A DNA stretch of 20,839 nt from Verrucomicrobiales bacterium (GCA_031265105.1 JAISDC010000082.1:1-20839); one strand, 5' to 3'. Shown: positions 3,717-20,839, counted from the first letter of the stretch. Made by a program: numbers and translations. The notes: generated by a model from the letters alone, not told the origin.

Positions 3717-3812
3717 TTGAAGATTGATGATGGCCAATTGACTATTTGCCGATTGCGCGCGGCGCGCCAACTAACAAATTATCAATATTCAATGATCAAT
3801 GGAAAATTCCCC

Positions 3813-5621: not shown

Positions 5622-5644
5622 CAAAGCGGTTGGGCACAGAGAGA

Positions 5645-5725
5645 CACAGAGCAGGCACAGAGTTCCACAGAAATTTTCTCTGTGGCTCCCGGTGCCTGCT
5701 CTGTGTGTGCTGCGGGCTGTTTTTA
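5645..5725 (+). terminator. long imperfect hairpin plus T-run downstream of uup. It is built from CACAGAG word repeats.
   Basis: CACAGAGCAGGCAC (5645-5658) pairs with GTGCCTGCTCTGTG (5692-5705). There is an inner stem CCACAGA (5665-5671) / TCTGTGG (5678-5684), then GCTGTTTTTAG at 5716-5726. Confidence 0.5.
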
Positions 5726-5965
5726 GAATTGATGGCGGCAGCCCGCTGTTAGTCTCCAGGATTTGTCGTACTTGTCGCCGAAAGAGGCTTCGTAGTCGAG
5801 GTGGAGTTGATTGTCAGCGTCAGCGCCGGGGGCTCGGTAATCTATATCGCTGCGGCCGTAACCGGCGTAAATTCCCAGATAGAGGTCACTGTCAGTGGAC
5901 AAGGTAAACTTAGTTATTTGTTCTTGGTTAAAATAGTGGTTTGAGGCTTGGTTGCTTCCCGCGCG
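5726..5965 (-). pseudogene. start-less remnant of an autotransporter beta-barrel domain, paralogous to the 3' end of the autotransporter at 18264..20839
   Basis: Minus-strand frame reads ...QEQITKFTLSTDSDLYLGIYAGYGRSDIDYRAPGADADNQLHLDYEASFGDKYDKSWRL... The autotransporter reads KFTLSADSDLYLGVFAGYGRSDLDYRTPGTDGELNSYYGG. About 80/99 nt are identical between 5813..5911 (reverse complement) and 20388..20486. The remnant has no Met start and is bounded by in-frame stops (TGA at 5968..5966, TAA at 5725..5723). Confidence 0.45.
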
Positions 5966-6078
5966 TCACCCTGAGCGGAGGCGAAGGGGCGGGTTGGCTC
6001 AGCAATGGAGCGGGCCGGTCCTGCGACGCGCTACGCTTGCCCAAGATGGGCGGGGACGCCAGCATGATGAAAATATAC

Positions 6079-6109
6079 TTGCTAGTCGAGGTCACTGTCA
6101 GCGTAGCAT
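6079..6109 (+). promoter_or_regulatory. candidate copA promoter with a 19-bp spacer (TTGCTA - 19 - TAGCAT). This geometry is typical of MerR/CueR-type metal-responsive promoters.
   Basis: TTGCTA at 6079-6084, a 19-nt spacer, TAGCAT at 6104-6109. Partial dyad GTCACTGTCAG in the spacer. No cueR gene is visible in the window. Confidence 0.2.
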
Positions 6110-6182
6110 CGGAATCATGACTGCCGGCGGCCAGGAACATTTTGCCGTTTGCGGGGCGCGGGGGCGGTGGCATACTCGCGGC

Positions 6183-8366
<2,184 letters not shown>

Positions 8367-8373
8367 CCATCGT

Positions 8374-8454
8374 TTTTTTTCACCACGAAGACACCAAGAC
8401 ACCAAGCATGTTTTAAATAAAACTTCGTGTCTTGGTGTCTTTGTGGTGAAAAGA
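8374..8454. terminator. ~30-bp-arm inverted repeat (family A element pair). It forms a bidirectional intrinsic terminator between the convergent copA and rmuC genes.
   Basis: Left arm TTTTTTTCACCACGAAGACACCAAGACACCAAG (8374-8406), loop CATGTTTTAAATAAAA, right arm CTTCGTGTCTTGGTGTCTTTGTGGTGAAAAG (8424-8454). A T-run lies on one side and an A-run on the other. Confidence 0.6.
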
Positions 8455-8487
8455 CCGCCGCCGCTCCCCTCGCGCGCGCCTTGGCGG

Positions 8488-9627
8488 CTAATCGGCCTGT
8501 TCCGCCAAGCCGGGCTGGCTTTCGCCGTCGCGGAGTTTGGTGATGGTTTTGTCGAAGCGGTCGAGGTCGCGGCCGGCTTTTTCGTAATCGTCCTGCGCCT
8601 GGCGGATGCGCTGGCCGCTGTTGACGAAGTCCTTGCGGAAGTTCTGGAAATGTTTGTCCATGTCCTGGATGGCGCGCAACAGCACGTTGGCGTTTTCCTG
8701 CATTTCGTAACCGCGGAACGCCAGCGCCACGGCGTATAACGTGGCGGCCAGCGTGTTCGGCGAGACGACGCTGACTTTGACTTTGCGGCAGTGCTCGGTC
8801 AGCTCGGGCAGCTTGAGGATTTCGTAATACAGACTTTCGCTCGGCACGAACAGGAAGGCCTGGTCGGTGGTGCCGAGTTCGGGCCGGACATACTTCTTCG
8901 CAATGTCAGCGGCCATCAGCTTGATGACCGCGGCGAGTTCCTTGCGCGCGGTTTCCCGCCCGGCCTCGTCATTGGCCGCGTCGAGCAGCGCGGCGATGCG
9001 GTCCTTGGGGAATTTGGCGTCCACGCACAGGCGCAGTTGCTTGATGCGGATGGTGGCGTCCGGCTGGCAGCCTTCCGCCAGGCGCGGCTGCAATTCGTAG
9101 GCGCCCTGCGGCAGAATGTCCGCCAGCAGCAGTTCCAACTCGGCCTCGCCGAAATTACCCTGGAGCTTCGGCGCGCCGAGAATCTGGTTGAGTTCGCCGA
9201 CCTGCTGGCTGACCCGCAACATCTGGTCGGCGCTGGCCTTCAAGTCGCCGAGGCTCCTGGTCATGTCCTTGAACGCGGAGAAATTCTGTTCCAGGTTTTC
9301 CTGCAACCGCCGCTCGACATTGGCGCGGATTTCCTGCAAGCGCTGCGCGGTCTGGTGTTGCAGTGACTCGAACCGCTGTTCCATCACCAGCGACTGGTTG
9401 GTCAGCGCGTCCTGGATGCTCTTGCGCAACAGCTCGCTGTTGGCGGAATTGAAATCGCGGAAATCACTCTTCTGATCGCCGAGGCTTTTTTGCAACAACT
9501 CGCGCAACCCGGCCAGTTGTTGTCCCTGGCTGCTGTGCAAGTCGGGCGCCAGCCGCGACAGCAGCCACAGGCCGACGGCCAGCACCAGCAGCACCAGCAC
9601 CAATAACATGACGGTCACCATTCCCAT
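8488..9627 (-). CDS. rmuC: DNA recombination protein RmuC
   Basis: N-terminal TM helix (MGMVTVMLLVLVLLVLAVGLWLL), a long coiled-coil region, and a C-terminal RmuC-type block (PDATIRIKQLRLCVDAKFP...LFVPSESLYYEIL...VSPNTLAATL). Confidence 0.8.
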   Translation of the reverse strand: MGMVTVMLLVLVLLVLAVGLWLLSRLAPDLHSSQGQQLAGLRELLQKSLGDQKSDFRDFNSANSELLRKSIQDALTNQSLVMEQRFESLQHQTAQRLQEIRANVERRLQENLEQNFSAFKDMTRSLGDLKASADQMLRVSQQVGELNQILGAPKLQGNFGEAELELLLADILPQGAYELQPRLAEGCQPDATIRIKQLRLCVDAKFPKDRIAALLDAANDEAGRETARKELAAVIKLMAADIAKKYVRPELGTTDQAFLFVPSESLYYEILKLPELTEHCRKVKVSVVSPNTLAATLYAVALAFRGYEMQENANVLLRAIQDMDKHFQNFRKDFVNSGQRIRQAQDDYEKAGRDLDRFDKTITKLRDGESQPGLAEQAD

Positions 9628-9766
9628 GCGCCGAGCTTACCCGCCGGCGCTCGCGCGGCAAGCCTGCCGTCATCCTTACAAAGAGATCATGGAGTTATTG
9701 GAGGAAGGGTTGCGGCAAGCAAAGGTACTGCTCCAATTCCTCCGTGCGCTCTTTGTAAAAAAGTAG

Positions 9767-11251
9767 TCACTGCTCCATGCTGGACAATTGCGCCAGCTTC
9801 ACGCGCAGCCGGAACCACAGGCTGCCCGCGTCATACCGGTTCAGGTCCTCGGCGTCAGCGGCGGCGAAATCCGCCGCGAGCATCCGCTCAACGTCAGCGG
9901 CGAAGGCACGGTCGTTGATGACGGCGGCCAGTTCGAAGTTCAGCATGAACGAGCGGTAGTCCGCGTTCACCGAGCCGATGATCGCCAGGTCATCGTCCGC
10001 AAGCAACACCTTCTGGTGCATGAAGCCGGGGCGGTAGCGGTAAATTTGCACGCCCGCGTCGCGCATGGCCGGATAATACGAGAACGACGACCACCACGGC
10101 AGCCAGTGGTCGGGCCGCGCCGGCAGCAGAATCCGCACCTCCACGCCGCGCAAGGCCGCCTGGGTCAGCGCCTGCCGCAGCACCGAGTCCGGCACGAAGT
10201 ACGGGCTGGCCAGCCACAGCCGGCGCCGGGCCGCCTGGATGATGGTGTCGTACACCGGCTGGCAGATGTTGCACGGGTCGGCCGGGCCGCTGGCGAAGAC
10301 GATGGCGGGGAGGGATGATTGATTATTTGTCGGTGGCTCAACCGCGGCGTCAGTGTCACCGTCAGCGGCAGTATTCAAATAATCAATAGAAAATAATCCA
10401 TTATCAATGCCCTCCGCATACCGCCAGTCCTCCGCGAAGTTCACCCGCAACGCGCGGATGGCCGGGCCGCGCAACTCCAGGTGCGTGTCGCGCCACGAGT
10501 CGAAGCGCGCGCCGCCGGTGAGGTACTCGTCCGCGGCATTCAGCCCGCCGAGGAACGCCACCGCGTCGTCCACCAACACCAGCTTGCGGTGGTTGCGGAA
10601 ATTGATTTGAAACCGCATCCCGACGCGGCGGTTGGTGACGAACCCGCTGACCTGCACGCCCGCGCGCCGCAGCGCGGCGAGGTAGCCGACGGTCATGTGT
10701 TTCGAGCCGATGCCGTCGTACAGCACCCAAGTCTTCACCCCGCGGGCGGCGGCGGCGATGAGCGCGTCCTTCAGCCGGTTGCCGAGCGCGTCGTCGCTGA
10801 TGATGAAGAACTGCACCGCCACCGTGCGGCGGGCGCGCCCGATGGCGTCCAGCATGGCGGCAAACGCGGCCTGGCCGTTGACCAGTAGCCGCGCCGTGTT
10901 GCCGCCGGTGGCCGGCAACCCGCGCAAGCGTTCCAGCAGCCGCGGCACATCGGCGTATTTCTCGGCAAAGTCAACGCGGGCCGCTGACATGGAGTGTTGC
11001 GCGGCGGCGAGGAGTCGCGCGAGGTCGCGGTCGGCGCCGTGGTCGGCGCGGAGGTAGCCGGAGAAGCGGGACTCGCCGAACACCAGGAACAGCGGGATGG
11101 CGACGAGGGGCAGAAAAAACAGCGCCAGGCCCCAGCCCACCGCCGCCTGCGGGGTGCGCGCGATGAACAGCGCCTTGGGAATCAGCAGCCAGCCGGTGAT
11201 TTGCACCACCGCCAGCAGCAGTGTTGGCACCCAATGCCAGTAAGTTTCCAT
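9767..11251 (-). CDS. cls: cardiolipin synthase (phospholipase D superfamily, two HKD motifs)
   Basis: Two N-terminal TM helices, then HRKLVLVDD and MHQKVLLADD...GSVNADYRS, which are HxK-x4-D motifs. Length 494 aa, as for ClsA. Confidence 0.85.
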   Translation of the reverse strand: METYWHWVPTLLLAVVQITGWLLIPKALFIARTPQAAVGWGLALFFLPLVAIPLFLVFGESRFSGYLRADHGADRDLARLLAAAQHSMSAARVDFAEKYADVPRLLERLRGLPATGGNTARLLVNGQAAFAAMLDAIGRARRTVAVQFFIISDDALGNRLKDALIAAAARGVKTWVLYDGIGSKHMTVGYLAALRRAGVQVSGFVTNRRVGMRFQINFRNHRKLVLVDDAVAFLGGLNAADEYLTGGARFDSWRDTHLELRGPAIRALRVNFAEDWRYAEGIDNGLFSIDYLNTAADGDTDAAVEPPTNNQSSLPAIVFASGPADPCNICQPVYDTIIQAARRRLWLASPYFVPDSVLRQALTQAALRGVEVRILLPARPDHWLPWWSSFSYYPAMRDAGVQIYRYRPGFMHQKVLLADDDLAIIGSVNADYRSFMLNFELAAVINDRAFAADVERMLAADFAAADAEDLNRYDAGSLWFRLRVKLAQLSSMEQ

Positions 11252-11313
11252 GCCGCCAGCCTAGCCGCTGACCGTGCCAAAGTCAGGCGGAATCGACGGC
11301 TTGGGTAATGCTG

Positions 11314-11394
11314 TTTTTTTACCACAAAGACACCAAGAATGAGCCGCCTTAACGCAAAGGGACCAAGGTGTAAAGGCGCAAAGGATTTTTTATA
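11314..11394. repeat. small intergenic repeat elements: one family A copy (TTTTTTTACCACAAAGACACCAAGAATGAG) abutting one family B copy (reverse-complement orientation: TTAACGCAAAGGGACCAAGGTGTAAAGGCGCAAAGGATTTTTTAT)
   Basis: Family A matches 8374-8406. Family B matches 18203-18245 and is partially present at 12533-12553. Confidence 0.55.
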
Positions 11395-11485
11395 GGGAGA
11401 GCATGGAGTTCATGGAGGTTTTTAAAAAAATAATCTCCCTGTTAAAAATTTCTTGGTTCCTTGGTGTTAATGAAGCTCCCGCCGG

Positions 11486-12445
11486 TCAGTTTGACCGGAT
11501 GAAGCTCGCGACTTTCTTCCCGACCAGTTCGCCCGCTTCGACGCGTAATTGGTCCAATTCGACGGTCGCGTCGCCGTGGTAGTTCTTCAACACGTCCGCC
11601 CACGCTTGCAGGCACAGGGCGGCGGTGAGGCGGTTGATGTCCAGCTTCCGGTCCTTCGCGATTTTTTGCAGGGCGCGGTATTGGTTGAAGGTGATGCCGG
11701 CGGGGCTGGGCGGGTAAATGTAGTAGTTGCCGGCGAACATCGCGGTGTTCGGCGCGTCGAGCAATTTTTGCTCCACCGCCGCCAGCTCGCCGTCGTCGAA
11801 ACCGAACGCGCGCAGGACGCCCTTCGCCATCAGCAGGTTGCCTTCCGGGTTCATGTGTACCCCGTCGGCGGTGAGGTAGCGCGGGCCGGGCGGCAGCGGC
11901 TTCAAGTATGCCCAGAAGTCGGCGCTGAGATCGGCCAGCGGCAGGTTTTTCTCCTTGGCCAGCGCGCGCAGAAAGTCGTTGTAGGCGGCGAGTTGCTGGT
12001 TGTTCGGGTTGTCAACTTCCTGAATCGGGGTAGCGGTGAGCAGCATGACTTTCACGCCGGCTTTGGTGGCCCGCTCGACGATGGCGGTGATGTTTTCCTG
12101 GTATTGCGGCAGTTCGACGCCGTTGGCGCCGTGCCAGACGTCGTTGACGCCGCAACTGAGCGTCATCCAGGTGGGCTTTTTCGCCAGCACGTCGCGCTCC
12201 AGTCGCTCCAGCATGTTGTTGGATTTGTGGCCGCCGATGCCCGCCGGGTAGGGGGTGACCTTGATGCCCGCCAGGGCCAGGCCGTCCACCACCAGATGCA
12301 CGTAGCCGCCGGTGTTGCCCCAGCCCTGCTGGGTGATGGAGTCGCCGAGGAAGGCGACGCTGTCGCCGTTTTTGATGAGCGGTTCCGCGTTGACGCTGAC
12401 GGTGGCCAGCAACGCGACGATTAACGAGGAGATGAAGGTTCTCAT
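11486..12445 (-). CDS. secreted SGNH/GDSL-family hydrolase (lipase/esterase-like), 319 aa
   Basis: Signal peptide MRTFISSLIVALLATVSVNA. GDS block (AFLGDSITQQGW) near the N-terminus. DGVH catalytic block near the C-terminus (ADGVHMNPEGN). The stop codon is embedded in the palindrome CCGGTCAgttTGACCGG (11478-11494). Confidence 0.75.
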   Translation of the reverse strand: MRTFISSLIVALLATVSVNAEPLIKNGDSVAFLGDSITQQGWGNTGGYVHLVVDGLALAGIKVTPYPAGIGGHKSNNMLERLERDVLAKKPTWMTLSCGVNDVWHGANGVELPQYQENITAIVERATKAGVKVMLLTATPIQEVDNPNNQQLAAYNDFLRALAKEKNLPLADLSADFWAYLKPLPPGPRYLTADGVHMNPEGNLLMAKGVLRAFGFDDGELAAVEQKLLDAPNTAMFAGNYYIYPPSPAGITFNQYRALQKIAKDRKLDINRLTAALCLQAWADVLKNYHGDATVELDQLRVEAGELVGKKVASFIRSN

Positions 12446-12632
12446 AGGCCCGGCATTGTGCCTCCCCGCGCGCGCGGTGTAAATGCCATAAATTCACGCG
12501 GTTGGCGCCGCCAGCCACGAATTTTAGTTAACAAAAAATCCTTCGCGCCTTGCTGCCTGCTTCGCAGGGGAATCAGAAGCGGCGTGCATTTGCCGCTTTA
12601 GTTGTTGCGTCTTCGTGGTCGGAGTTGCCCGG

Positions 12633-13856
12633 TCAACCGCACCGCGCCCCGTCCACCATGAACAACGCCGGCTTGCCCCGCGCGGCGGTCACCGCCAGAT
12701 ACGGATCCGTCCGCTCCGGCAGCGGGAACGCCACCAGGTCCGCCAGCGCGCCGCCGGCGATGACGCCCAGGACGCCCGCCTGGCCGAGTTGCGCGGCGGG
12801 CACGGTGGTCACCATGCGCAACCCTTCCTCGGCGCTGACGGCGGGGTGGGCGCGGCAGAACGCGCGCACCTCCGCGCGCAGATCCAGCACGTCGTTGCTC
12901 GCCAAACTGTCGGTGCCCAGCGACACGCTGCAACCGGCCGCGCGCAGGCGCTCGTACGGGAACCGCGCGCGGCCGAAGTAGGCGTGGCAGCGCGGGCAAT
13001 GCACCACCGGCAGCGGTTGCCGGCGCAGCAGCAGTTCATCGCGCGCCGACACGTGGTTCAAGTGCGCCACCAGGCATTGCGCGTCCAGCAGCCCGTCCGC
13101 CAGCAGGCGGGCCAGCGCGGAGTCCTGCCCGCAATCGCCCATGTCGCGGCCCGCGCCCCGGAAAAACTCGAACAGCGCGCCCCGCCGGTGCGCGAACATC
13201 TCTTGCTCCTCGTCGGACTCCGCGACGTGCGTGGTCAGCAACAGCCCCTCGCGCCGCGCCAGGCGCAGCGCGCGCCGGTATAACCACGCGCTGGCGGTGT
13301 ACGGCGCGTGCGGGCTGAGGCCGCCGCCGCCCGGCCACGCGCGGCTGCGCGCGAAGAACTCCAGCGCCAGCGTCAGCGCCTCGTCCGCCGCCGCCCGCGA
13401 GCGCGCGTCAATCAACTCGACGCACCACCACGTCCGCAACGGCGGGCGCGGCAGCAACGGCAGCACTTCGGGAAACGCCGCGATGTTGCACACCGTCGTG
13501 CAGCCGCTGTCGGCGAGTAATTGGAACCCGCGCGCGATGGCGGCCAGCCAGTCGCTGACGGTGAAGCTGCGCTTGAGGGTGTTGATGCGTTTTATCCACT
13601 CGGTGAACGGCAGCCCCGGCGGAATCGCGCCCTGGAGATTGGTGTAATCCAAATGGCAGTGCGCGTTAATCAACCCCGGCAGCAACACGCACCCCGGCAA
13701 GTCCAGCACCGTTTCGCCCGCCGCCGGCGTCAACCCCGCGCCGACCGCCGCGATGCGGTTGCCGCTGACCCTGACCGCCGCGCCCGCCAGCGGCGGCCCG
13801 GTCATCGTCAGCGTCATGGCGGGGCGGATGAGCATGGCCGTAATGCGCTCGCGCAT
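12633..13856 (-). CDS. metal-dependent amidohydrolase of the TRZ/ATZ, SsnA/MtaD-like deaminase family
   Basis: HxH metal-binding motif (LINAHCHLDYT). Downstream His/Asp ligands (TTHVAES, LVAHLNH, SLGTDS). Its start overlaps the def stop by 1 nt (TGATG). Confidence 0.7.
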   Translation of the reverse strand: MRERITAMLIRPAMTLTMTGPPLAGAAVRVSGNRIAAVGAGLTPAAGETVLDLPGCVLLPGLINAHCHLDYTNLQGAIPPGLPFTEWIKRINTLKRSFTVSDWLAAIARGFQLLADSGCTTVCNIAAFPEVLPLLPRPPLRTWWCVELIDARSRAAADEALTLALEFFARSRAWPGGGGLSPHAPYTASAWLYRRALRLARREGLLLTTHVAESDEEQEMFAHRRGALFEFFRGAGRDMGDCGQDSALARLLADGLLDAQCLVAHLNHVSARDELLLRRQPLPVVHCPRCHAYFGRARFPYERLRAAGCSVSLGTDSLASNDVLDLRAEVRAFCRAHPAVSAEEGLRMVTTVPAAQLGQAGVLGVIAGGALADLVAFPLPERTDPYLAVTAARGKPALFMVDGARCG

Positions 13857-14407
13857 CAGCGCGGCTGCGCGCGCAAACCGGCGAGTTTGTCCTTCAACTG
13901 CTCGCGCTCGGCGGCGCTCAGTTTGTCGATGAACAGCACGCCGTGCAAGTGGTCGAACTCATGCTGCACCGCGCGCCCCAGCAAGCCGCCCGCCTCAAAC
14001 TCGCGCGGTTGCAAATCCAGGTCCTGGTACCGCACCTTGACGCGGAAGCCGCGGTTGAGGTCGATGTTGATGCCGGGGAAGCTCAGGCAACCCTCGTTGT
14101 CGAGTTCCTTTTTCTTGGTGATTTCGATGTGCGGATTGATGAGCGTCAGCGGCATGATGCTTTGCACATCGGCCTCCTTGCCGTCCAGCCACAGGCGCGA
14201 CTTGCGCTTCGAGTCGGCGGGAATGTCAATCACCGCCAGTTGCAGCGCGCGCCCGACCTGCTGCGCCGCCAGCCCGACGCCCTCGGCTTTGCGCATCGTG
14301 TCGAGCATGTCCCGCGCGAGTTGGCGCAATTCCGGGGTTACTTTGCCGACCGTCGCGCCCCGCTGCCGCAGCACCGGGTCGCCGTATTTCACTATGGGTA
14401 AAATCAT
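13856..14407 (-). CDS. def: peptide deformylase
   Basis: Motif 1 GVGLAAQQVG, motif 2 EGCLSFPG, motif 3 QHEFDHLHG (HExxH). The ORF-track start at 14449 is a TTG. I prefer ATG 14407 (MILPIVKYGDPVL...), which matches Def N-termini. Confidence 0.85.
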   Translation of the reverse strand: MILPIVKYGDPVLRQRGATVGKVTPELRQLARDMLDTMRKAEGVGLAAQQVGRALQLAVIDIPADSKRKSRLWLDGKEADVQSIMPLTLINPHIEITKKKELDNEGCLSFPGINIDLNRGFRVKVRYQDLDLQPREFEAGGLLGRAVQHEFDHLHGVLFIDKLSAAEREQLKDKLAGLRAQPR

Positions 14408-14454
14408 AAATGCGCAGCCAGCATACAATATCACCGCGCGTGTTGCCAACAGGC

Positions 14455-15927
14455 TTATTGCTGTCCGCTGGCCGGGGGCGCTGACGGTGCCGGCGCGGGT
14501 TGCGCGGGCGGCGCCGGTTCAGCGTCAGCGGCGGGGGTGCCGAGGACGGACGGGAGTTTGAGGCCGACGTTGTTGAGCAATTCGTGCAGCGGCGGCAGCG
14601 CCGTCGCCAGCTTGTTCAAAAAGTTCGCGGTGCTGGTGCCGCCGTTCGCGCCGCCGTTGTCCCAGACGACGACTTTGTCGAATTTGATGTTCTTGATCGC
14701 CTCGGTTTGCGCGCCGACGAGCACGGGCATTTGTTCGACCAGCAGCAGATTGATTGCCAGCGCCGGGTTCGCGCCGGCGGCTTTGGTCAGGCGCTCGAAG
14801 CCCTCGGCGCGGCCGTTCAGCGCGGCCTTGATGCCGTCGGCCTCGGCGAGGCGCAGTTGCCGCAAGCCGTCGGCCTCCGCGGTTTTGACGGCGAGCAAGC
14901 CGTCGGCCTCGCCCTGCTTGGTTTTGCGCACGGCGTCGGCGGCGCCCTCGGCGGTTTTCACGCGCACGGCGGCGTCCGCCTCGGCCTGGATGACTTGCTG
15001 CGATTTGGTCTGGCGCGCCGGCACCAGCACGTCGGCCTCGTACGTCGCCTCGGTCACGCGGGCGCGCGCCATCTCGGCCTCCTGTTTGGCGAGCGCGGAG
15101 TTTTTCGCGGTCAGCGCGACGGCGACTTGCTCGGCGGTCTCGGCGAGTTTGCGCGCCTCGGCCTCGCGCGTGCGCCGCGCGGCGTCACTGTCAGCGATGG
15201 CGACCAGCGAGGTGTTCTCGCCCTGCCGCGTCTCGGCTTGCAGCGCGGCGACGGTCACGGCCTGCTCCATGCGCGCGCGGGCGGCGCCGACCGCGCCGTC
15301 GCGGTCCGCCTCGGCGACGCGGATGCTGGCGGTGTTGATGCGCTCGGCGGCGACTTCCTTGCCCAGCGAGTCGATGTAGCCGACGTCGTCGGTGATGTCG
15401 CGGATGTTGACGTTAATGAGGCGCAGGCCGATTTTTTCCAACTCGACGGAAATGGAGTCGCGCACGCTGACCAGCAGTTTGTCACGGTCAGCGTTGATTT
15501 CCTCAATCGAGAGCGAGGCGATGACCTGGCGCATCTGGCCGGTGATGATGTCGAGCGCGCTGGACATGATTTGCGGCAGCGTGAGGCCGAGCAGGCGCTC
15601 CGCGGCGTTCTGCATGATTTCCGGCTCGGTGGACAGGCCGATCATGAACGTGCTCGGCACGTCCACGCGGATTTTTTGCAACGACAGCGCGTCCTCCAGG
15701 TTGACCTCGACGCTGACGGGGCGCAAGTCCATGTATTGATAACCTTGGATGACCGGCCACACAAACGAGCCGCCGCCGTGGATGCAGCGCGCGCCGCGGC
15801 CGCCGGCGACTTTGCCGTAGATGACGAGGATGCGGTCGGACGGGCATTTTTTGTAGCACTTCAACAGTGACAGCATGGTCACGAAAAACAACAGTGCGAC
15901 GGCGATGATGGCGATGGCGAATGACAT
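14455..15927 (-). CDS. flotillin-like SPFH/band-7 protein (YqiK/FloT-like)
   Basis: N-terminal TM segment, SPFH core, and a long Ala/Glu-rich coiled coil (AEAEARKLAETAEQ...AEADGLRQLRLAEADGI). AAGGAA Shine-Dalgarno sequence 7 nt upstream of the ATG. Confidence 0.85.
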   Translation of the reverse strand: MSFAIAIIAVALLFFVTMLSLLKCYKKCPSDRILVIYGKVAGGRGARCIHGGGSFVWPVIQGYQYMDLRPVSVEVNLEDALSLQKIRVDVPSTFMIGLSTEPEIMQNAAERLLGLTLPQIMSSALDIITGQMRQVIASLSIEEINADRDKLLVSVRDSISVELEKIGLRLINVNIRDITDDVGYIDSLGKEVAAERINTASIRVAEADRDGAVGAARARMEQAVTVAALQAETRQGENTSLVAIADSDAARRTREAEARKLAETAEQVAVALTAKNSALAKQEAEMARARVTEATYEADVLVPARQTKSQQVIQAEADAAVRVKTAEGAADAVRKTKQGEADGLLAVKTAEADGLRQLRLAEADGIKAALNGRAEGFERLTKAAGANPALAINLLLVEQMPVLVGAQTEAIKNIKFDKVVVWDNGGANGGTSTANFLNKLATALPPLHELLNNVGLKLPSVLGTPAADAEPAPPAQPAPAPSAPPASGQQ

Positions 15928-15981
15928 ATGGTTCCTTGGTTGGTTCGGTTGGTTGAGTTGATTGGGTTGGGGTAAAATTGC

Positions 15982-16554
15982 TTACTCACCGTCAGCGAGC
16001 GGCTCGACGGCGACGCCGGTGCCCTCCAGCCGCAGCACCCGCACCTCCGTGCCGAACGGCGCCGCGCGGTCGCTGACGTTGAACGCCTTGACGGAAACTT
16101 TGCGCCCGCCGCTGACGACGGTGATTTCACCCGCGCCCGCGCCGCGCGGCGGCAGCGGCAAATACACGGTGCCGCTGGCGCCGACAGTTTGCGTCAACTG
16201 GAACGTGCCGTCCTCCGCCAGCCGCGCGAACTGGCGCATCAGCCACACCAGCAGCGCCGCCAGCGCGAACCCGACCAGCGCCGCGAGCAGGGTCGCGGAC
16301 ACGGCGCCGAGGCCGAGTTGCAAACAGCACAAGCCGCCCCAGCCGCTGCCGGTGGCGAACGCGGTGATGGCCTTGAACGAAAACCAGTGTACGCCGGCGT
16401 CACCGTCAGCGTCGGGCGAGTCGAAATCACCGTCAGCGCCGAACAAAGCCATGCCGCCCTGGGCGACGAGCATGGCGGTGCCGAGGATGCCGAGCGTCCA
16501 AAAAATCCGCGCGGCCAGCTCCAGCCCGTCCCACCATTCGACGATAGCATTCAT
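15982..16554 (-). CDS. NfeD-family membrane protein (short YuaF-like form), partner of the downstream flotillin
   Basis: N-terminal hydrophobic helices and a C-terminal OB-fold-like block (GEITVVSGGRKVSVKAFNVSDRAAPFGTEVRVLRLEGTGVAVEPL). This is the conserved nfeD-SPFH operon arrangement. The ORF-track start 16593 is a TTG; I prefer ATG 16554 (MNAIVEWW...). Confidence 0.7.
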   Translation of the reverse strand: MNAIVEWWDGLELAARIFWTLGILGTAMLVAQGGMALFGADGDFDSPDADGDAGVHWFSFKAITAFATGSGWGGLCCLQLGLGAVSATLLAALVGFALAALLVWLMRQFARLAEDGTFQLTQTVGASGTVYLPLPPRGAGAGEITVVSGGRKVSVKAFNVSDRAAPFGTEVRVLRLEGTGVAVEPLADGE

Positions 16555-16676
16555 GCGGGGCCAAAGGTAACGCGCCGGCCCGCCGCCTAACAAGCAAAAT
16601 CAGCGCCAGGTGGAAATTTTCGGCGCCGCGGCGCGCTGCCTTTGCGGTCATTGCTTGCCGGCCCGCCTTTGGCAGT

Positions 16677-16717
16677 AAAAAAAAAAACTTGCGGTCATCC
16701 GGCTATTGTAATACAGT
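16677..16717 (+). promoter_or_regulatory. A11 homopolymer tract immediately upstream of a candidate promoter (TTGCGG - 17 - TACAGT) that reads toward the repeat/autotransporter locus
   Basis: A x11 at 16677-16687. TTGCGG at 16689-16694, a 17-nt spacer, TACAGT at 16712-16717. Confidence 0.25.
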
Positions 16718-16837
16718 CGCGCCCCGTTGCCGCAAACGGCTGATAGTGAAAGCTCCGCCAGCAGGGGGGCTTAAGCCAAAGCGGAAAAGCGGCAACTCCT
16801 TGAAGATGATTGACCTGGGCCATAACCGCAGGACGCC

Positions 16838-16894
16838 GCGCTCACGCGCTCACGCGCTCACGCGCTCACGCGCTCACGCGCTCACGCGCTCACG
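16838..16894. repeat. perfect octanucleotide tandem repeat (GCGCTCAC) x7
   Basis: Seven head-to-tail copies run from 16838 to 16893, preceded by a partial unit. They lie in the divergent intergenic region between nfeD and the 42-bp repeat locus. The unit length is not a multiple of 3. Confidence 0.9.
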
Positions 16895-17059
16895 CGCTCA
16901 CGGTATGACTCTTGCCCTGATTCCTTAATTTCCCCGCCAGTTTTTACCCTTTTCATTCCCCATGCGGTAACATTCCGGCAGGATGCCACCCCGTCACGAT
17001 TAGCGTCACCTCCCGCACGGTATCATACGATTCCTACCTGGCGAGAGCCGTTTCATGCA

Positions 17060-17377
17060 GTGCAGGAAGCGCATACTGCATTGCATGATTTGCCTCCTGC
17101 GGCGCGGGAACCGAATACTGCAACGCATGACGCGCATCCTGCAACGCAGGAGTCGAATACTGCACTGCATGATTCACCTCCTGCGGCGCGGGAACCGCAT
17201 ACTGCAACGCATGACGCGCATCCTGCAATGCAGGAGTCGAATACTGCGCCGCATGATTCACCTCCTGCGGTGCGGGAAGCGCATACTGCAACGCATGACA
17301 CACCTCCTGCCGAGCAGGATTACCCACTTTTGGCGGCTGTGTGGCCGCCATTAAACCAACCCCAAAGGAACCCATGA
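17060..17377 (+). CDS. possible 105-aa repeat protein (14-aa HD/P/T-rich repeats) encoded by the 42-bp array. Coding status and strand are uncertain.
   Basis: GTG start at 17060. Its TGA stop overlaps the ATG of the next gene (ATGA at 17374-17377), which suggests translational coupling. The unit length is a multiple of 3. A minus-strand alternative exists (ATG 17351 to stop 17034: MAATQPPKVGNPARQEV, then a 14-aa repeat alternating PAPQEVNHAAQYST / PALQDARHALQYAV). Neither candidate has a Shine-Dalgarno sequence. Confidence 0.25.
   Translation: MQEAHTALHDLPPAAREPNTATHDAHPATQESNTALHDSPPAAREPHTATHDAHPAMQESNTAPHDSPPAVREAHTATHDTPPAEQDYPLLAAVWPPLNQPQRNP
17073..17324. repeat. 42-bp tandem repeat array, about 6 units, with two alternating unit types forming an 84-bp higher-order repeat
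   Basis: Units start with ATACTGCA at 17073, 17115, 17157, 17199, 17241 and 17283. Odd units read ...GCATGATTYRCCTCCTGCGGYGCGGGAASCGM. Even units read ...AACGCATGACGCGCATCCTGCAAYGCAGGAGTCGA. Units contain short stem-loops such as CCTGCaacGCAGG. All six frames are open across the array. Confidence 0.9.
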
Positions 17378-18129
17378 ATAGAAACCAACATGCAGTCAGC
17401 AACATCAGCGTCAAAAAATACATCCACAAAACCTGGGACGGTATTGACGACTTCTTCACCCAATACGGCGACAACCTCGTCAACGTCCAGACCAAAACCG
17501 ACCCCGGTCTCGCCGACGCCGACATCGCCAATGTCAAGGAAACCACCGCCGCCTACGGCAAATTGAACCAAGCCATTGACGAAGTGGAAAGACTCCTCGC
17601 CGCCCTGCGCGCCCTGCGCATCCAACTCCTCACCCAGCAAACTATGGACCCCGTCCGCGTCCCCCTCATCCAACCCCTCACCACCCTCCTTGCCGCCATC
17701 GAAGGCAAACGCGGCGGCTTGCTCTGGCAAGAAGACCGCCTCACCGACCGCATCTTCCGCAGCCCCAGATGCACCCAGGAAGACTACGAAATGCTCGGCA
17801 TCGTTTACAAACCCAACACTTCAGCCCCCATTGATAACCTCATCGGCAAACTCTACGCCGTGTTTGACGGCGGCAAAGTTCCGATCCATTGGACCCTCCC
17901 GCGCGGCTACCACAACGCCCGCCTCACCGCCAGCACCAACCACGGCGAATGGGTACTACTCTACGAAGGCAGCGAAAGCCACTTCATCGACGCGCGCCCC
18001 ATCCCCGCCATCTCCGAAATCCGCTCCTACAAACTCGAAATCATGGAAACCGGCAAACCCATCGGCAAACCCGCCATCGACAAAATCCTCGTCGGCCAAG
18101 ACATCTCCGTCGAAGAAACCAAACTCTAA
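17374..18129 (+). CDS. hypothetical protein, 251 aa. No domain recognised; no signal peptide.
   Basis: AAAGGAA Shine-Dalgarno sequence 4-5 nt upstream of ATG 17374. Protein-like composition (MNRNQHAVSNISVKKYIHKTWDGIDDFF...). Codon usage has more A/T-ending codons than the core genes and resembles the adjacent autotransporter. A long inverted-repeat terminator follows it. Confidence 0.6.
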   Translation: MNRNQHAVSNISVKKYIHKTWDGIDDFFTQYGDNLVNVQTKTDPGLADADIANVKETTAAYGKLNQAIDEVERLLAALRALRIQLLTQQTMDPVRVPLIQPLTTLLAAIEGKRGGLLWQEDRLTDRIFRSPRCTQEDYEMLGIVYKPNTSAPIDNLIGKLYAVFDGGKVPIHWTLPRGYHNARLTASTNHGEWVLLYEGSESHFIDARPIPAISEIRSYKLEIMETGKPIGKPAIDKILVGQDISVEETKL

Positions 18130-18140
18130 CTAGCCTCATT

Positions 18141-18248
18141 AACGCAAAGACGCAAAGGAACAAAGTAACGCAAAGATTTTTGTTAATTGAAAAACCAAAC
18201 CAAAAAAATCTTCGCGCCTTTGCCCCTTTGTTCCTTTGCGTTAATGCA
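18141..18248. terminator. family B inverted-repeat element pair forming a long hairpin after the 251-aa gene
   Basis: Left arm ATTAACGCAAAGACGCAAAGGAACAAAGTAACGCAAAG, then ATTTTTG. Right arm AAAAAATCTTCGCGCCTTTGCCCCTTTGTTCCTTTGCGTTAAT. Homologous copies are at 11343-11394 and 12533-12553. Confidence 0.55.
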
Positions 18249-18263
18249 GCTCAAAAAAACTTT

Positions 18264-20839
18264 ATGAAAACCTCCAACATGAAAACACGAAAACTAACCC
18301 TGATACTAACCCTCCTCTGCGCCCTCAGCGTCTCCGCGTTGAACATCTTCGCGGAAAACAAAATCGTCAATACCGGCACCGTGGTGGAATCCGGCAGTAC
18401 CTACGCCGCCTCCACCAATCAGTCGGCCCTGACGGTCAGCGGCAGCGGGACGCTGTACGAGGGCACTAACCTTACTTTGTCCAGCACCGAGACCAACCAG
18501 CATGGCGTCTTCGTCAACACCCAAGGCGCGCTATCGTTACGTGACAGCACGGTTTTCACTTCCGCCACTGGCGCTTACGGCATTGCGTTGACCACCACCT
18601 CGTCCGCCAGCCTGGAACGTGTCGCGGTCACGGTCAGCGAAGCGTTTTCGCATGGCATCTATATGTTGAACTCCAAGCTGTCCGTGACCGACGCGACAGT
18701 GGTGATTTCGGCATCCAATAGGAACGGTCATTTCGACGGAATATACATCGGCAACACCAGCGAAGCTGATTTGACAAATGTGAGCGTAGAATTACGGGGC
18801 GACCAGACCAACGGCATCAGCATCCTCAACACCGCCACCGACAAAAGCACCGTCACGGCCACCGGTATCAACATTGCCGCGCAAGGCGAACTTGCCGACG
18901 GTCGGGCCAATGTCAGCGGTGTCACCGTAGAAGGTAACGCGGACCTGCAAATGCGCGATTTTTTAGTCACGGTGCGCGACGGTAATGCGGGCGTGAACAC
19001 TTGGACGAACCCTATACTACGGGTTGACGAGTTTGTGACGCTGCGCAGCGGCACCATCATTATGATTGATAGCGGCGCCGGGATTAATGTCGGCGGCAAC
19101 GGTAATCGCTATGTGGCATTGCACGATGTGGCTATCAGCGCGAGCGGCGAGGACACCCATGCCATTCTTATGGACACGCGCGGGTTGGACATTGATGACA
19201 AAGTTCTGCTGGTTGACGGCGGCAAGTTCATCGCCGAAAACGGGGCGGCGCTCCGGGTGGGGCTGTTCGGCGAGACATCCGAGCTCAATGCCACGCAGTC
19301 CGCGGGCGCCAACTATACCGTCACCATCACCGGCAGCGCCGCCCTCAGCGGCACGGCGGCCATGGAATTCGGCACCACCGCCATTGCCCCCAGCGGCACG
19401 GCCTACGAACTGGTCAACCACGCCCGCATAACCGTGGCGGATGGCTCCACCCTCACCGGTGCCACCAACATCCACGGCAACTCCGACGTGAATATAGAAC
19501 TCACCGACAACTCCGCCCTGACCGGCGACCTTACCGCCAGCGGCTCGTCCAACACCACCCTCAGCGGCAGCAACGGCGCCACCATCACCGGCACCGTCAG
19601 CGGCAACGATAACGCCGTCATCGACCTCACCGTCAGAGGCCCCGGCAGCACCATCATCAGTGACATTAACCAAAACGACGACGCAGCCGTCACCATCACC
19701 CTCGATAACAGCGCCACCGGCCAAGGCGGCTACCACGGCGGCAACCTCATCACCGGCAGCGATAGCACCTGGACTTTTGACAAGGACAGCCACGGCAACT
19801 ACGGCGAAAACAATGGCACTTGGAACATCGGCGACTACGAAGTCATCTTCGATAACATGACCCACACCGGCACCGTTAACATCAGCGTCAACACCGACAC
19901 CGGCGACGGCGGCTCTATCACTGTGGATACCGCTGACGGTGAAGGCACCGTCCACATCGACACCACCGGCAACGGTAAACTCAACCCCAACGACGTACTC
20001 CCCGGCGTCGTCACCGGCGACGGCACGGAACACTGGCAATGGGATCCCATCGACTGGGGCATCGACACCATCATCAAAGACGGCGACCACTTCATCAAAC
20101 AAGGCACCAGCCCCGCCGGCGCAGAATTGAACAGCAGCGTAGCCATCCAACAAGCCAGGTGGTTCGCGCAGCAAAACAGCCTGCTCAAACGCATGGGTGA
20201 CCTCCGCTTTTCGTCATCCCGTCAACTCGTCACCTCGTCGTCTGACAAAGCCGTCACCCTCAGCGCTGCCAACCTGATCGAAAACATCTGGCTCAGAAGC
20301 TACGGCCAACAATTAAACGTCGGCAGTAAAGTATCAGGCAAAGCCTACGAACAACTCATCTACGGCGTGGACTTGGGCACTGACCATAAGTTCACCTTGT
20401 CCGCTGACAGTGACTTATATCTGGGCGTCTTCGCCGGTTACGGCCGCAGCGACCTCGACTACCGCACCCCCGGCACTGACGGTGAACTCAACTCCTACTA
20501 CGGCGGCCTCTACGCCACGTGGTTACACAGCAGCGGCCTCTACATCGACGCTACCGTCAAAGCCGCCAGCGTGGACAACAATCTAAAAGCTCCCTACAGC
20601 GGCAGTCAAATCACCGCCAACTACAGTGATGTGAACCTCGGCGGCAGCATCGAAATCGGGAAGAAGTTCACCTTCGCTGATGATTGGTTCATCGAACCCC
20701 AGTTTCAAGTCAACTACCTCCACATCCTCGCCGAGGACTATCAAGCCGGCCCCATGAGCATCACCGCCAGCGACCTCGACGCCCTCCAGTTCAGAATCGG
20801 CAGCGTATTCGGCCGCACCCTCAAGCTCGCCAACGGCGG
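18264..20839 (+). CDS. classical (type Va) autotransporter: signal peptide, Gly/Thr/Asn-rich beta-helical passenger, C-terminal beta-barrel. Partial: runs off the window end.
   Basis: MKTSNMKTRKLTLILTLLCALSVSALNIFA signal peptide. The passenger has repetitive beta-helix-like tracts (TLSGSNGATITGTVSGNDNAVIDLTV...). The junction reads AIQQARWFAQQNSLLKRMGDLRF...NIWLRSYGQQ, followed by barrel strands (YLGVFAGYGRSDLDY...GGLYATWLH...GGSIEIGKKF...). No stop occurs before 20839, hence it is absent from the ORF track. Confidence 0.85.
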   Translation, partial: MKTSNMKTRKLTLILTLLCALSVSALNIFAENKIVNTGTVVESGSTYAASTNQSALTVSGSGTLYEGTNLTLSSTETNQHGVFVNTQGALSLRDSTVFTSATGAYGIALTTTSSASLERVAVTVSEAFSHGIYMLNSKLSVTDATVVISASNRNGHFDGIYIGNTSEADLTNVSVELRGDQTNGISILNTATDKSTVTATGINIAAQGELADGRANVSGVTVEGNADLQMRDFLVTVRDGNAGVNTWTNPILRVDEFVTLRSGTIIMIDSGAGINVGGNGNRYVALHDVAISASGEDTHAILMDTRGLDIDDKVLLVDGGKFIAENGAALRVGLFGETSELNATQSAGANYTVTITGSAALSGTAAMEFGTTAIAPSGTAYELVNHARITVADGSTLTGATNIHGNSDVNIELTDNSALTGDLTASGSSNTTLSGSNGATITGTVSGNDNAVIDLTVRGPGSTIISDINQNDDAAVTITLDNSATGQGGYHGGNLITGSDSTWTFDKDSHGNYGENNGTWNIGDYEVIFDNMTHTGTVNISVNTDTGDGGSITVDTADGEGTVHIDTTGNGKLNPNDVLPGVVTGDGTEHWQWDPIDWGIDTIIKDGDHFIKQGTSPAGAELNSSVAIQQARWFAQQNSLLKRMGDLRFSSSRQLVTSSSDKAVTLSAANLIENIWLRSYGQQLNVGSKVSGKAYEQLIYGVDLGTDHKFTLSADSDLYLGVFAGYGRSDLDYRTPGTDGELNSYYGGLYATWLHSSGLYIDATVKAASVDNNLKAPYSGSQITANYSDVNLGGSIEIGKKFTFADDWFIEPQFQVNYLHILAEDYQAGPMSITASDLDALQFRIGSVFGRTLKLANG

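Follow-up and report, generated by a model that had tools for sequence, protein, structure and literature searches.

The window analyzed in this study is a 20,839 nt contig from the metagenome-assembled genome (MAG) of a Verrucomicrobiales bacterium (GCA_031265105.1, JAISDC010000082.1:1-20839), in which small inverted arrays of short words, here called word hairpins, lie in the spacers between genes. According to Pfam matches and the reading of open reading frames (ORFs), the contig carries a uup-type ABC-F gene (3717-5621, + strand), a P-type ATPase gene (5952-8366, +), rmuC (8488-9627, -), cls (PLD; cardiolipin synthase; 9767-11251, -), a GDSL lipase gene (11486-12445, -), an amidohydrolase gene (12633-13856, -), an SPFH protein gene (14455-15927, -), an ORF of 262 aa (17341-18129, +) and an autotransporter-like ORF (18264 to the contig end, +). 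A first-pass annotation had recognized two families of the elements, A and B, and a third style built from CACAGAG words, and had likened them to terminator modules of the REP or Correia type. We show here that the word hairpins fall outside the classes of terminators, repetitive extragenic palindromic (REP) units and miniature inverted-repeat transposable elements (MITEs). They form an apparently very widespread and undescribed class.

The family A word hairpin (8373-8454) lies where the P-type ATPase gene and rmuC converge, between their stop codons (8366 and 8488). It consists of a T-run (8373-8380), an A/C-rich arm (8381-8406) reading CAC CACGAAG A CACCAAG A CACCAAG, a loop (8407-8422), a G/T-rich arm (8423-8448) and an A-run (8449-8452). 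The repeat finder aligned 8377-8406 with 8423-8452 as 30 nt arms of 93% complementarity, and the predicted RNA folds reach -46.9 and -47.2 kcal/mol on the two strands (z = -9.7 and -9.4). A single, unpaired family A arm (11314-11337, + strand), composed of a T-run and ACCACAAAG ACACCAAG, lies 63 nt upstream of the start codon of cls on the opposite strand. The repeat finder placed it at 11310-11338 (repeat I16), a 29 nt match of 90% that extends 4-5 nt beyond the T-run. With three exact matches of the family A core, ACCACRAAGACACCAAG, versus 0.09 expected from shuffled sequences, both the inverted pair and the single copy of the first-pass annotation are present, and the single arm does abut a family B element as it had proposed.

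This adjoining element, B1 (11341-11478; repeat I2), is degenerate and was delimited by repeat search, fold and motif matches. Its A/C-rich arm (11340-11391), TTAACGCAAAG GGACCAAGG TGTAAAGG CGCAAAGG A followed by a T-run, is a reversed copy of 18202-18253 (83% in the repeat finder). Next to it are a small inner hairpin (11393-11442), which contains CATGGAGTTCATGGAGG, and a short diverged G/T-rich arm (11443-11479), CTTGGTT CCTTGGTG TTAATGAAGCTC, whose right foot and the GDSL lipase stop codon are separated by 7 nt. The arm had been described as a single reversed copy; it is reversed, but it is not single, since it pairs with the diverged arm. On the + strand, 11341-11478 is predicted to fold as one long degenerate hairpin (-50.7 kcal/mol, z = -4.4).

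The inverted pair of family B, B2 (18132-18251; repeat I3), was recovered by the same three kinds of evidence. It begins 3 nt past the stop codon of the 262 aa ORF (18129) and ends 12 nt ahead of the ATG of the autotransporter-like ORF (18264). B2 comprises TTAACGCAAAG ACGCAAAG GAACAAAG TAACGCAAAG A with a T-run, a loop, and an A-run with the complementary arm ending in GCGTTAA; the arms (18132-18182 and 18201-18251; 51 nt) are 73% complementary, and the predicted folds are strong (-48.4 and -61.8 kcal/mol, z = -9.6 and -11.5). A partial composite lacking a partner arm (12533-12616, - strand) lies between the stop codon of the amidohydrolase gene (12633) and the start codon of the GDSL lipase gene (12445), and reads ACCACGAAGACGCAAC ... 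GGCGCGAAGGA and TTTTTT on its strand. It is the second composite, after 11314-11391, with an A-like start and a B-like end followed by a T-run. The truncated B copy annotated at 12533-12553 is genuine in that 12533-12551 shares an exact 19-mer with 11373-11391 in B1. The RNA fold of 12533-12616 was not significant (z = +0.4). The family B core and the B run end each have three matches in the window, versus 0.02 and 0.04 expected, respectively. The B copies in the window also have common termini, GAGCnnC(A/C)TTAAC, beyond the words; this common sequence, like that of I16, fits copying or recombination.

Downstream of uup (stop codon 5621), CAC-A-GAG words form a hairpin (5644-5706; repeat I24) with 28 nt arms of 86% complementarity and a predicted fold of -48.5 kcal/mol (z = -5.0), flanked on its 5′ side by more CACAGAG words from 5633 and containing an 11 nt tandem unit, GGCACAGAGA. 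A further hairpin (9676-9758), whose words ACAAAGAG, CATGGAG and TTGGAGG come near the grammar described below, occupies the spacer between the stop codon of cls (9767) and the start codon of rmuC (9627); its folds reach -38.9 and -34.9 kcal/mol (z = -5.4 and -6.1), and an A-run then follows on the + strand. The word CATGGAGTTMWTGGAGG, already noticed at first pass, is found at 9688 and 11402 (two matches versus none expected), and both ATGGAG words lie within a hairpin, namely 9676-9758 and the inner stem 11393-11442. The counts of all these motifs (A core, B core, B run end and ATGGAG word) were above those in every shuffle. Every repeat of the first-pass list was recovered, no more than a few bases from its annotated coordinates. 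On the - strand, which is sense for the neighboring genes, 9688-9704 and 11402-11418 read CCUCCA..CUCCAUG and thus contain the anti-Shine-Dalgarno core CCUCC, which pairs within the hairpin to GGAGG-like words.

Families A and B and the uup hairpin are three vocabularies of one grammar, so that the CACAGAG hairpin does not constitute a separate kind. The A/C-rich arm (M arm), almost free of T, is a tandem array of 2-5 units of 8 nt, each consisting of C-R-C-N-R-A-G and a 1 nt purine spacer, and the G/T-rich arm (K arm), almost free of A, is built of the complement, C-T-Y-N-G-Y-G. At the 5′ foot, a T-run usually precedes NAC(C); at the 3′ foot, the complement leads into an A-run. The words are CAC-N-AAG in family A, CGC-A-AAG in family B (with the variants CGCGAAG, CGCAGAG and CGCGGAG) and CAC-A-GAG in the uup hairpin. 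Both arms have a period of 8 nt, sometimes 9 nt, and vocabulary followed the G+C content of the host only as a weak trend (rho = 0.15, p = 0.08).

We searched for an exact family A pattern (TTTTYACCACRAAGACACCAAG, a 22-mer) in one genome per species, covering 185,579 species and 596 Gb, and for a family B pattern (TTAACGCAAAGRVRCMAAGG, a 20-mer) in metagenome contigs. The A 22-mer was found in at least 114 genome stretches versus about two expected from the pattern length and the 596 Gb, and the B 20-mer in at least 120 contig stretches with a like layout; the elements are therefore decisively not unique to this window, as they would have been under the refuting condition set at first pass, and the first-pass idea of reusable modules is upheld. 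At nearly all A-match loci, the match is the foot of the same hairpin structure. Among the matches listed, the hosts of the A 22-mer represent at least 15 phyla, including Cyanobacteria, Chloroflexota, Planctomycetota, Acidobacteriota, Bacteroidota and relatives, Verrucomicrobiota, Nitrospirota, Nitrospinota, Methylomirabilota, Desulfobacterota, Pseudomonadota, Abditibacteriota, Latescibacterota and Cloacimonadota. Bin contamination is not the explanation, because cultured isolates are among the carriers: Fischerella PCC 7521 and PCC 7414, Nostoc NIES-4103, Westiellopsis, Pedobacter psychrodurus (two strains), Endozoicomonas elysicola, Propionivibrio limicola and Kouleothrix.

The A 22-mer has no match in viral contigs, from which the idea arose that the family is absent from phages. 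This idea is ruled out by eight viral-contig matches of the B 20-mer and 100 of a general three-word A pattern, and the word hairpins are not confined to chromosomes. A phage head-morphogenesis module in an IMG/VR contig (L267, 1-5800) has a word arm or hairpin in each intergenic gap, and the hairpins there lie between co-directional genes for portal-like, minor head and maturation protease proteins; in one case the arms are 311 nt apart and may enclose a small ORF. A BLAST search of the A hairpin against plasmids gave no match, possibly owing to the low-complexity filter. Rfam gave only sub-threshold look-alikes of microRNA hairpins for the window at E values up to 1, and no match at the gathering threshold in 128 kb from 16 carrier loci. 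Full-text literature searches with twelve diagnostic 15-18-mers turned up a single paper, a fish environmental DNA study of no relevance, and keyword searches returned analogues only. A Logan contig of the same organism is 100% identical across 2.7 kb and hence reveals no polymorphism, and the nearest relatives, reached through the Cls protein (73% and 67% identity), have lost synteny with the window.

The A seed matches adopt three layouts. The order T-run, M arm, loop, K arm and A-run (type i) was seen in 62 cases; 16 had the order K arm, A/T spacer and M arm, which predominates in Nostocales and is often just upstream of a start codon; and 40 were lone M arms. In the metagenome loci of family B, a T-run, TTAAC and (GCAAAG R C)n are followed by a loop, the complement and GTT(A/G)AA. 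Ungapped stems span 16-51 bp, mostly 25-29 bp, around inner unpaired stretches of 3-185 nt, and the loops resemble one another neither in sequence nor in length. Word positions 1-3 and 5-7 were paired in 96-100% of cases in 60 family A hairpins and in 95-100% in 52 family B hairpins. At position 4 (N), 49% of the family A pairs were Watson-Crick, 8% G-U and 43% mismatched, and the corresponding values in family B were 77%, 5% and 19%; the spacer was mismatched in 18% and 19%, respectively. In an earlier sample of 53 type-i A hairpins, position N paired in 51% versus 42% expected under independence, and T occupied this position of the M arm in 1 of 147 cases. As the six fixed positions pair and N and the spacer do not consistently do so, the stems are 3 bp blocks separated by soft positions.

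The arms are distributed unequally among spacers, with 2.4 per kb between convergent, 1.4 between tandem and 0.67 between divergent genes. The gene context of 79 hairpins was convergent in 19, tandem in 26 and divergent in 4, and in 12 of the 26 tandem pairs both gaps were 14 nt or shorter. Family A feet had 60 stop-adjacent sides (22 of them within 0-9 nt) and 29 start-adjacent sides, and family B feet had 47 stop-adjacent (20 within 0-9 nt) and 37 start-adjacent sides (19 within 0-9 nt). Thus, the placement at gene 3′ ends proposed at first pass is correct for the feet that adjoin stop codons, but it is not exclusive, as start codons are equally close in tandem pairs. Lone M arms were oriented 52 to 52 relative to the flanking genes; this lack of bias rules out the A/C-rich arm as a sense-strand translation enhancer. 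No gene family was tied to the hairpins, as 150 flanking ORFs yielded 177 Pfam families, none of them in more than three.

The enrichment between convergent and depletion between divergent genes, together with the high stability of the stems, would suit bidirectional intrinsic terminators or terminating stabilizers of RNA 3′ ends, and intrinsic terminators likewise are stable stem-loops downstream of genes flanked by A and T runs. A T-rich 3′ flank was present in about 17% of the hairpins, and GTTTTT is located 12 nt downstream of the uup hairpin. However, the runs are on the wrong sides. Among 147 hairpins, 84 had a T-rich 5′ flank, 66 an A-rich 3′ flank and 25-27 a T-rich 3′ flank, and a T-run 5′ of the stem with an A-run 3′ is the opposite of terminator geometry. 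Stems of 25-33 bp and loops of 10-30 nt are much longer than canonical ones, and a terminator and promoter scan of the window returned 35 terminator-like sites, none of which was an element, including the uup hairpin that had been called a terminator. Word hairpins are moreover common inside operons, between start-adjacent co-directional genes and in the phage head operon, where termination would be harmful. A terminating function is therefore highly improbable, and the terminator part of the first-pass interpretation is not upheld.

REP units, bacterial interspersed mosaic elements (BIMEs) and REP doublets forming hairpins (REPINs) (PMC3733652, PMC6006769, PMC3116915) have more in common with the word hairpins. 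Both are small extragenic repeats able to fold into hairpins, occur as single units and as inverted doublets that form long imperfect hairpins, lack target-site duplications and could plausibly stabilize RNA 3′ ends. Both lie mostly between convergent and co-directional genes, where REP elements are co-transcribed with their neighbors; for the word hairpins we infer such transcription. A REP unit itself is a 20-40 bp palindrome with a stem of 6-13 bp, a loop of 4-5 nt and an unpaired GT[AG]G or CGTC tag. In contrast, the arm of a word hairpin is a non-palindromic array of 8 nt words, free of T or of A, that cannot pair with itself, so both arms are needed for the periodically unpaired stem of 25-33 bp. 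Its foot, a T-run with (C/T/A)AC(C) and the complement with an A-run, typically NACC, has neither GT[AG]G nor CGTC; GTGG/CCAC is present but inside the paired stem and in the opposite 5′-3′ order to the 'double-foot' REP (PMC6006769). REP consensus sequences are reported to be poorly conserved between species (PMC12306157), whereas the same 20-22-mers of the word hairpins recur across the 15 or more phyla. Elements with a GTAG tag do exist in a relative: in L116, three ~110 nt palindromic, REPIN-like doublets (CCCTTCCGTGAAGG...GGGGTAGTTCAGCGTT..., at 4780-4890, 9889-10000 and 13140-13250), located by six exact 16-mer matches, one per arm, look unlike word hairpins, and a similar GTAG-type element was seen by eye at ~16250-16340 in L117. 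The window contains no copy of the L116 doublet.

Correia elements (NEMIS) and MITEs also resemble the word hairpins in their size of ~80-150 nt, in inverted ends that fold in the mRNA, in their closeness to genes and as possible sites of RNA processing or stability. Correia hairpins are substrates of RNase III. The word hairpins differ in that their ends lack a target-site duplication, be it TA or another, their interior is not conserved, their lengths fall into no discrete classes and their arms are internally periodic; neither a parent insertion sequence nor a transposase was found between three distant arm pairs or among the 25 most frequent Pfam families of the 150 flanking ORFs. DDE-type MITEs are thereby ruled out as well. 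The exception to the lack of a conserved interior is one MAG described below. In 113 hairpins, target-site duplications, one of the features proposed for checking at first pass, did not exceed those with shuffled partners: direct repeats of 2-3 nt at the hairpin ends numbered 69 versus 65.7 and 25 versus 25.9, and a slight excess of 4-6 nt repeats is attributed to leftover A/T runs. Taken together with the non-palindromic arms, the missing tags, the unconserved loops and the lack of a transposase in these searches, this removes the elements from the REP and Correia families in which they had been placed. Integron attC sites were rejected because the ends of family B, TTAACGC...GCGTTAAT, are unlike RYYYAAC/GTTRRRY, the neighbors are housekeeping genes in mixed orientation, and the window has no integrase; CRISPR was ruled out on anatomy.

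Even so, the word hairpins might be non-autonomous, REPIN-like hairpins copied via single-stranded DNA by a host HUH/Y1 enzyme, i.e. a REP-associated tyrosine transposase (RAYT) or TnpA-Y1, acting in trans. By extension, a transferred enzyme would carry its cognate vocabulary across phyla, and single arms would be decayed, immobile remnants. Y1 transposition leaves no target-site duplication, in agreement with the hairpin ends; the lack of strand bias of single arms (52 to 52) suggests a DNA-level element, and half of the tandem pairs have a stop-to-start spacer that would be minimal but for the hairpin, the pattern expected of an insertion. The common termini of window copies beyond the words (I2, I16), the near-identical modules in one MAG and the same 22-mer in at least 15 phyla point in the same direction. 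As a precedent, REP types are reported to be specific to TnpA-Y1 subclasses, whose genes are patchy and transfer-like in distribution (PMC6006769). Against this explanation, the arms and feet do not match the REP definition (PMC3733652, PMC6006769), and copies in the same genome are not near-identical, with unrelated loops of 3 to 185 nt. No RAYT, Y1 or other transposase was seen among the 25 most frequent Pfam families of the 150 flanking ORFs, and three distant arm pairs enclose ordinary genes only, not an autonomous element. Hairpins are kept at orthologous sites in diverged relatives (L129/L204, L139/L203 and L190/L232), and no empty site was seen, the nearest relatives being without synteny to the window. 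We regard this explanation as rather unlikely.

Comparison of related copies revealed how the elements change. Two paralogous copies in the Verrucomicrobiales MAG Gx481_bin192 (L050 and L115) differ by exactly one 8 nt unit, and orthologous Nostocales copies (L029/L061 versus L010) differ by one unit and at N positions. Four hairpin modules stand in tandem in L002 (4720-5190, 109 nt spacing) and again in L075 (6260-6630, 98 nt spacing); both loci are from Chloroflexota MAGs, and these arrays of hairpin plus spacer resemble BIME clusters or tandem small-RNA gene arrays. The MAG 'bacterium BQF270218_bin_21' has at least six near-identical 145 nt modules (L025, two copies in L049, L051, L069 and L106), each consisting of TATAGTATTACTCCGAAAAAATTATCACGACCACGAAAATCT, an A-type hairpin and TTTGATTGCGGCCAAAGTCGCGCTATG, the last three bases of which are the ATG of different downstream genes; this module may be a portable 5′ leader or promoter cassette. 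The orthologous B hairpins of the three pairs mentioned above persist while their flanking genes diverge. In Nostoc sp. MG11 (L004, - strand, ~7200-7330), the G/T-rich arm is broken by a ~95 nt G+C-rich palindromic insertion, shorter versions of which occur in L024 and L031; it recalls the very small mobile repeats described in Nostocales.

Periodic arms are not restricted to the three vocabularies. An arm period of 7-9 nt was found in 61 of 181 long hairpins of the fetched loci, in many vocabularies that include the cyanobacterial TTGGTCA heptamer, and the unselected relatives L116 and L117 have word hairpins of CGCGGAG/CGCAGAG, CTCAAAA and GTGAAAA. A close analogue is the P6b stem of the Nostoc tRNA-Leu intron, built of complementary degenerate 7 nt repeats (PMC4476775). 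Like this stem and, as far as summarized in PMC4679880, the long simple repeats of 5-11 nt described by Mrazek 2007 or short tandemly repeated repetitive (STRR) sequences, the word hairpins have degenerate, head-to-tail tandem units in both arms, their copy number varies by whole units, with slippage proposed as the driver, and small insertions can sit in the arms, as in L004; a hairpin of the STRR-type TTGGTCA word was present in L010. They differ from these in the 8 nt unit with its own specific grammar, the 2-5 units and the defined foot, in being dispersed at gene boundaries beyond cyanobacteria, and in the inverted partner array, which is not part of the STRR definition.

Such observations also raise the possibility that the hairpins are functionless: a short inverted repeat with periodic arms would misalign by one unit and expand, and the self-growing by-products of slippage would be tolerated in non-coding spacers only, hence at gene boundaries. 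Whole-unit insertions and deletions, the periodic arms in one third of the long hairpins with many unrelated vocabularies, the neutral orientation and the lack of association with a gene family all accord with this, and earlier evidence shows tandem repeats of the 7 nt class to be prone to slippage and, in some bacteria, more frequent than expected (Mrazek 2007, as reported in PMC4679880). It leaves unexplained, however, why identical words and foot occur across phyla, why the arms lack T or A, why hairpins are retained at orthologous sites amid diverging flanking genes and why slippage should homogenize six positions but not N. We therefore consider it unlikely that the elements are by-products alone.

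By analogy with the systems above, we favor the reading that the word hairpins are slippage-evolving, non-terminating stem-loops at cistron boundaries, to which we assign a probability of roughly 45%. Present on chromosomes, neutral in orientation and tied to no gene family, the elements change in place: whole 8 nt units are gained or lost by replication slippage, N and the spacer vary freely as soft positions, entire hairpin modules duplicate in tandem, and copying within a genome is occasional. Co-transcribed with their neighbors, they would form stem-loops of very high stability (-35 to -60 kcal/mol). Such a stem-loop could block 3′ exonucleases where the upstream message ends, or serve as a processing site there, and a foot touching the start codon could mask or define the downstream start region.

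Several points weigh against this reading. About one third of the arms have no partner and cannot form a hairpin (40 of ~119 seed matches, and 81 arms in another set), and the fold of B1 is weak on the - strand (z = -0.8), from which its neighbors are transcribed. Selection acting only on the stability of stems leaves the near-random pairing of one position per unit unexplained. Nor does it account for the recurrence of the words and the foot in 15 or more phyla, which points to descent from a common source through transfer or to a reader acting in trans; this reading includes neither. Transcription through the elements and a role at the RNA level are inferred by analogy with REP/BIME and Correia hairpins. 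The foreign loci were selected by the window's own word patterns, and their genes are crude longest-ORF calls; at least one of these calls is plainly wrong (a spurious ORF to the left of 11314), so the distance statistics are noisy. In this regard, crude ORF calls ran through the stop-free arms.

Alternatively, the arms may present a series of sites bound by a conserved single-strand nucleic-acid-binding protein, which reads C-R-C and R-A-G or the complement, ignores N and the spacer, and finds its sites sequestered or presented by the hairpin. Candidates would be ribosomal protein S1, proteins with cold-shock, RRM or KH domains, or a ring-shaped oligomer. A shared reader would explain the shared words, and fixed positions at 96-100% with an essentially free N (a position where the A/C-rich arm takes A, C or G but hardly ever T) are as predicted by recognition with an unread position. 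Many feet are 0-19 nt from start codons, and the word GTCTTTG of the G/T-rich arm equals the heptamer reported to be favored by Bacillus CspB. A precedent exists in the TAACTGA heptamer repeats of Beggiatoaceae, Cyanobacteria and Bacteroidetes, which lie at start codons and for which S1, Csp and CsrA have been proposed as readers (PMC4679880). Like the word hairpins, these are one short word in tandem, intergenic, present in distant phyla without an evident mechanism of transfer, often directly upstream of start codons and linked to no gene function; unlike them, they are direct repeats of preferred orientation that form no hairpin, whereas the word hairpins are inverted arrays of other words with no bias of single arms. 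For a site read in mRNA, the 52 to 52 orientation of unpaired arms is unexpected, and other vocabularies with quite different words make the same kind of hairpin. Furthermore, candidate readers such as Rho or classical Csp proteins are not known from cyanobacteria. On balance, a protein reader of this kind seems improbable to us.

The vocabulary common to distant phyla and the unread N position also argue, taken together, for either a trans-acting reader or spread by an unrecognized single-strand DNA enzyme, the latter of which would agree with the missing target duplications and the neutral orientation. In a bolder version, which we hold to be doubtful to a similar degree, C-R-C-N-R-A-G hairpins would constitute a pan-bacterial coded cis-element served by a conserved factor that ignores N and the spacer, or by such an enzyme, and would act as a stop-start bridge in operons. 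Speculatively, the stem may bring together the stop and start codons, which lie 0-14 nt from the feet, and terminating ribosomes may re-initiate across the 80-120 nt insert in a prokaryotic counterpart of ribosome shunting, with the periodic mismatches perhaps keeping the helix from being a substrate of RNase III.

If the word hairpins are as widespread as the scans suggest, they are among the most cosmopolitan families of bacterial non-coding sequence, overlooked because model organisms lack them. The grammar provides a simple landmark of cistron boundaries in MAGs of poorly studied phyla, makes sense of many 'orphan' hairpins between genes that terminator prediction misclassifies or overlooks, and marks places where gene calling and short-read assembly may go wrong. 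It also raises the question of why identical 20-22-mers persist in different phyla although each word has one position free to vary; solving it would uncover either a conserved nucleic-acid reader or a new route by which small DNA spreads, and cultured carriers exist in Nostoc, Fischerella, Pedobacter psychrodurus and Endozoicomonas elysicola.

The window has several other repeats. Between the uup hairpin and the ATPase gene, 5760-5951 (- strand) looks like an orphan fragment of an autotransporter beta-domain gene: within it, 99 nt (5814-5912) match, in the inverted orientation, a segment of the autotransporter-like ORF (20387-20485) at 84% identity, with KFTLSTDSDLYLGIYAGYGRSDIDYRAPG on the - strand corresponding to KFTLSADSDLYLGVFAGYGRSDLDYRTPG in the ORF. 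The 54 nt spacer upstream of the SPFH gene (15928-15981) is made of GGTTGGTTG-type words with a 9 nt period in 3.7 copies, which on the mRNA strand read as CAACC words ending in AAGGAACCATG and have no partner arm. A perfect tandem array of the 8 nt unit CGCGCTCA (16837-16902; 8.2 copies, 100% match) lies in the non-coding stretch 16594-17340 and is a candidate slippage (phase-variation) tract upstream of the 262 aa ORF. A nested 21/42/84 nt tandem repeat (17062-17310), for which Rfam returned only sub-threshold microRNA look-alikes, contains three copies of the 84 nt unit at 90% match and is directly upstream of, or overlaps, the start of the same ORF (17341-18129).

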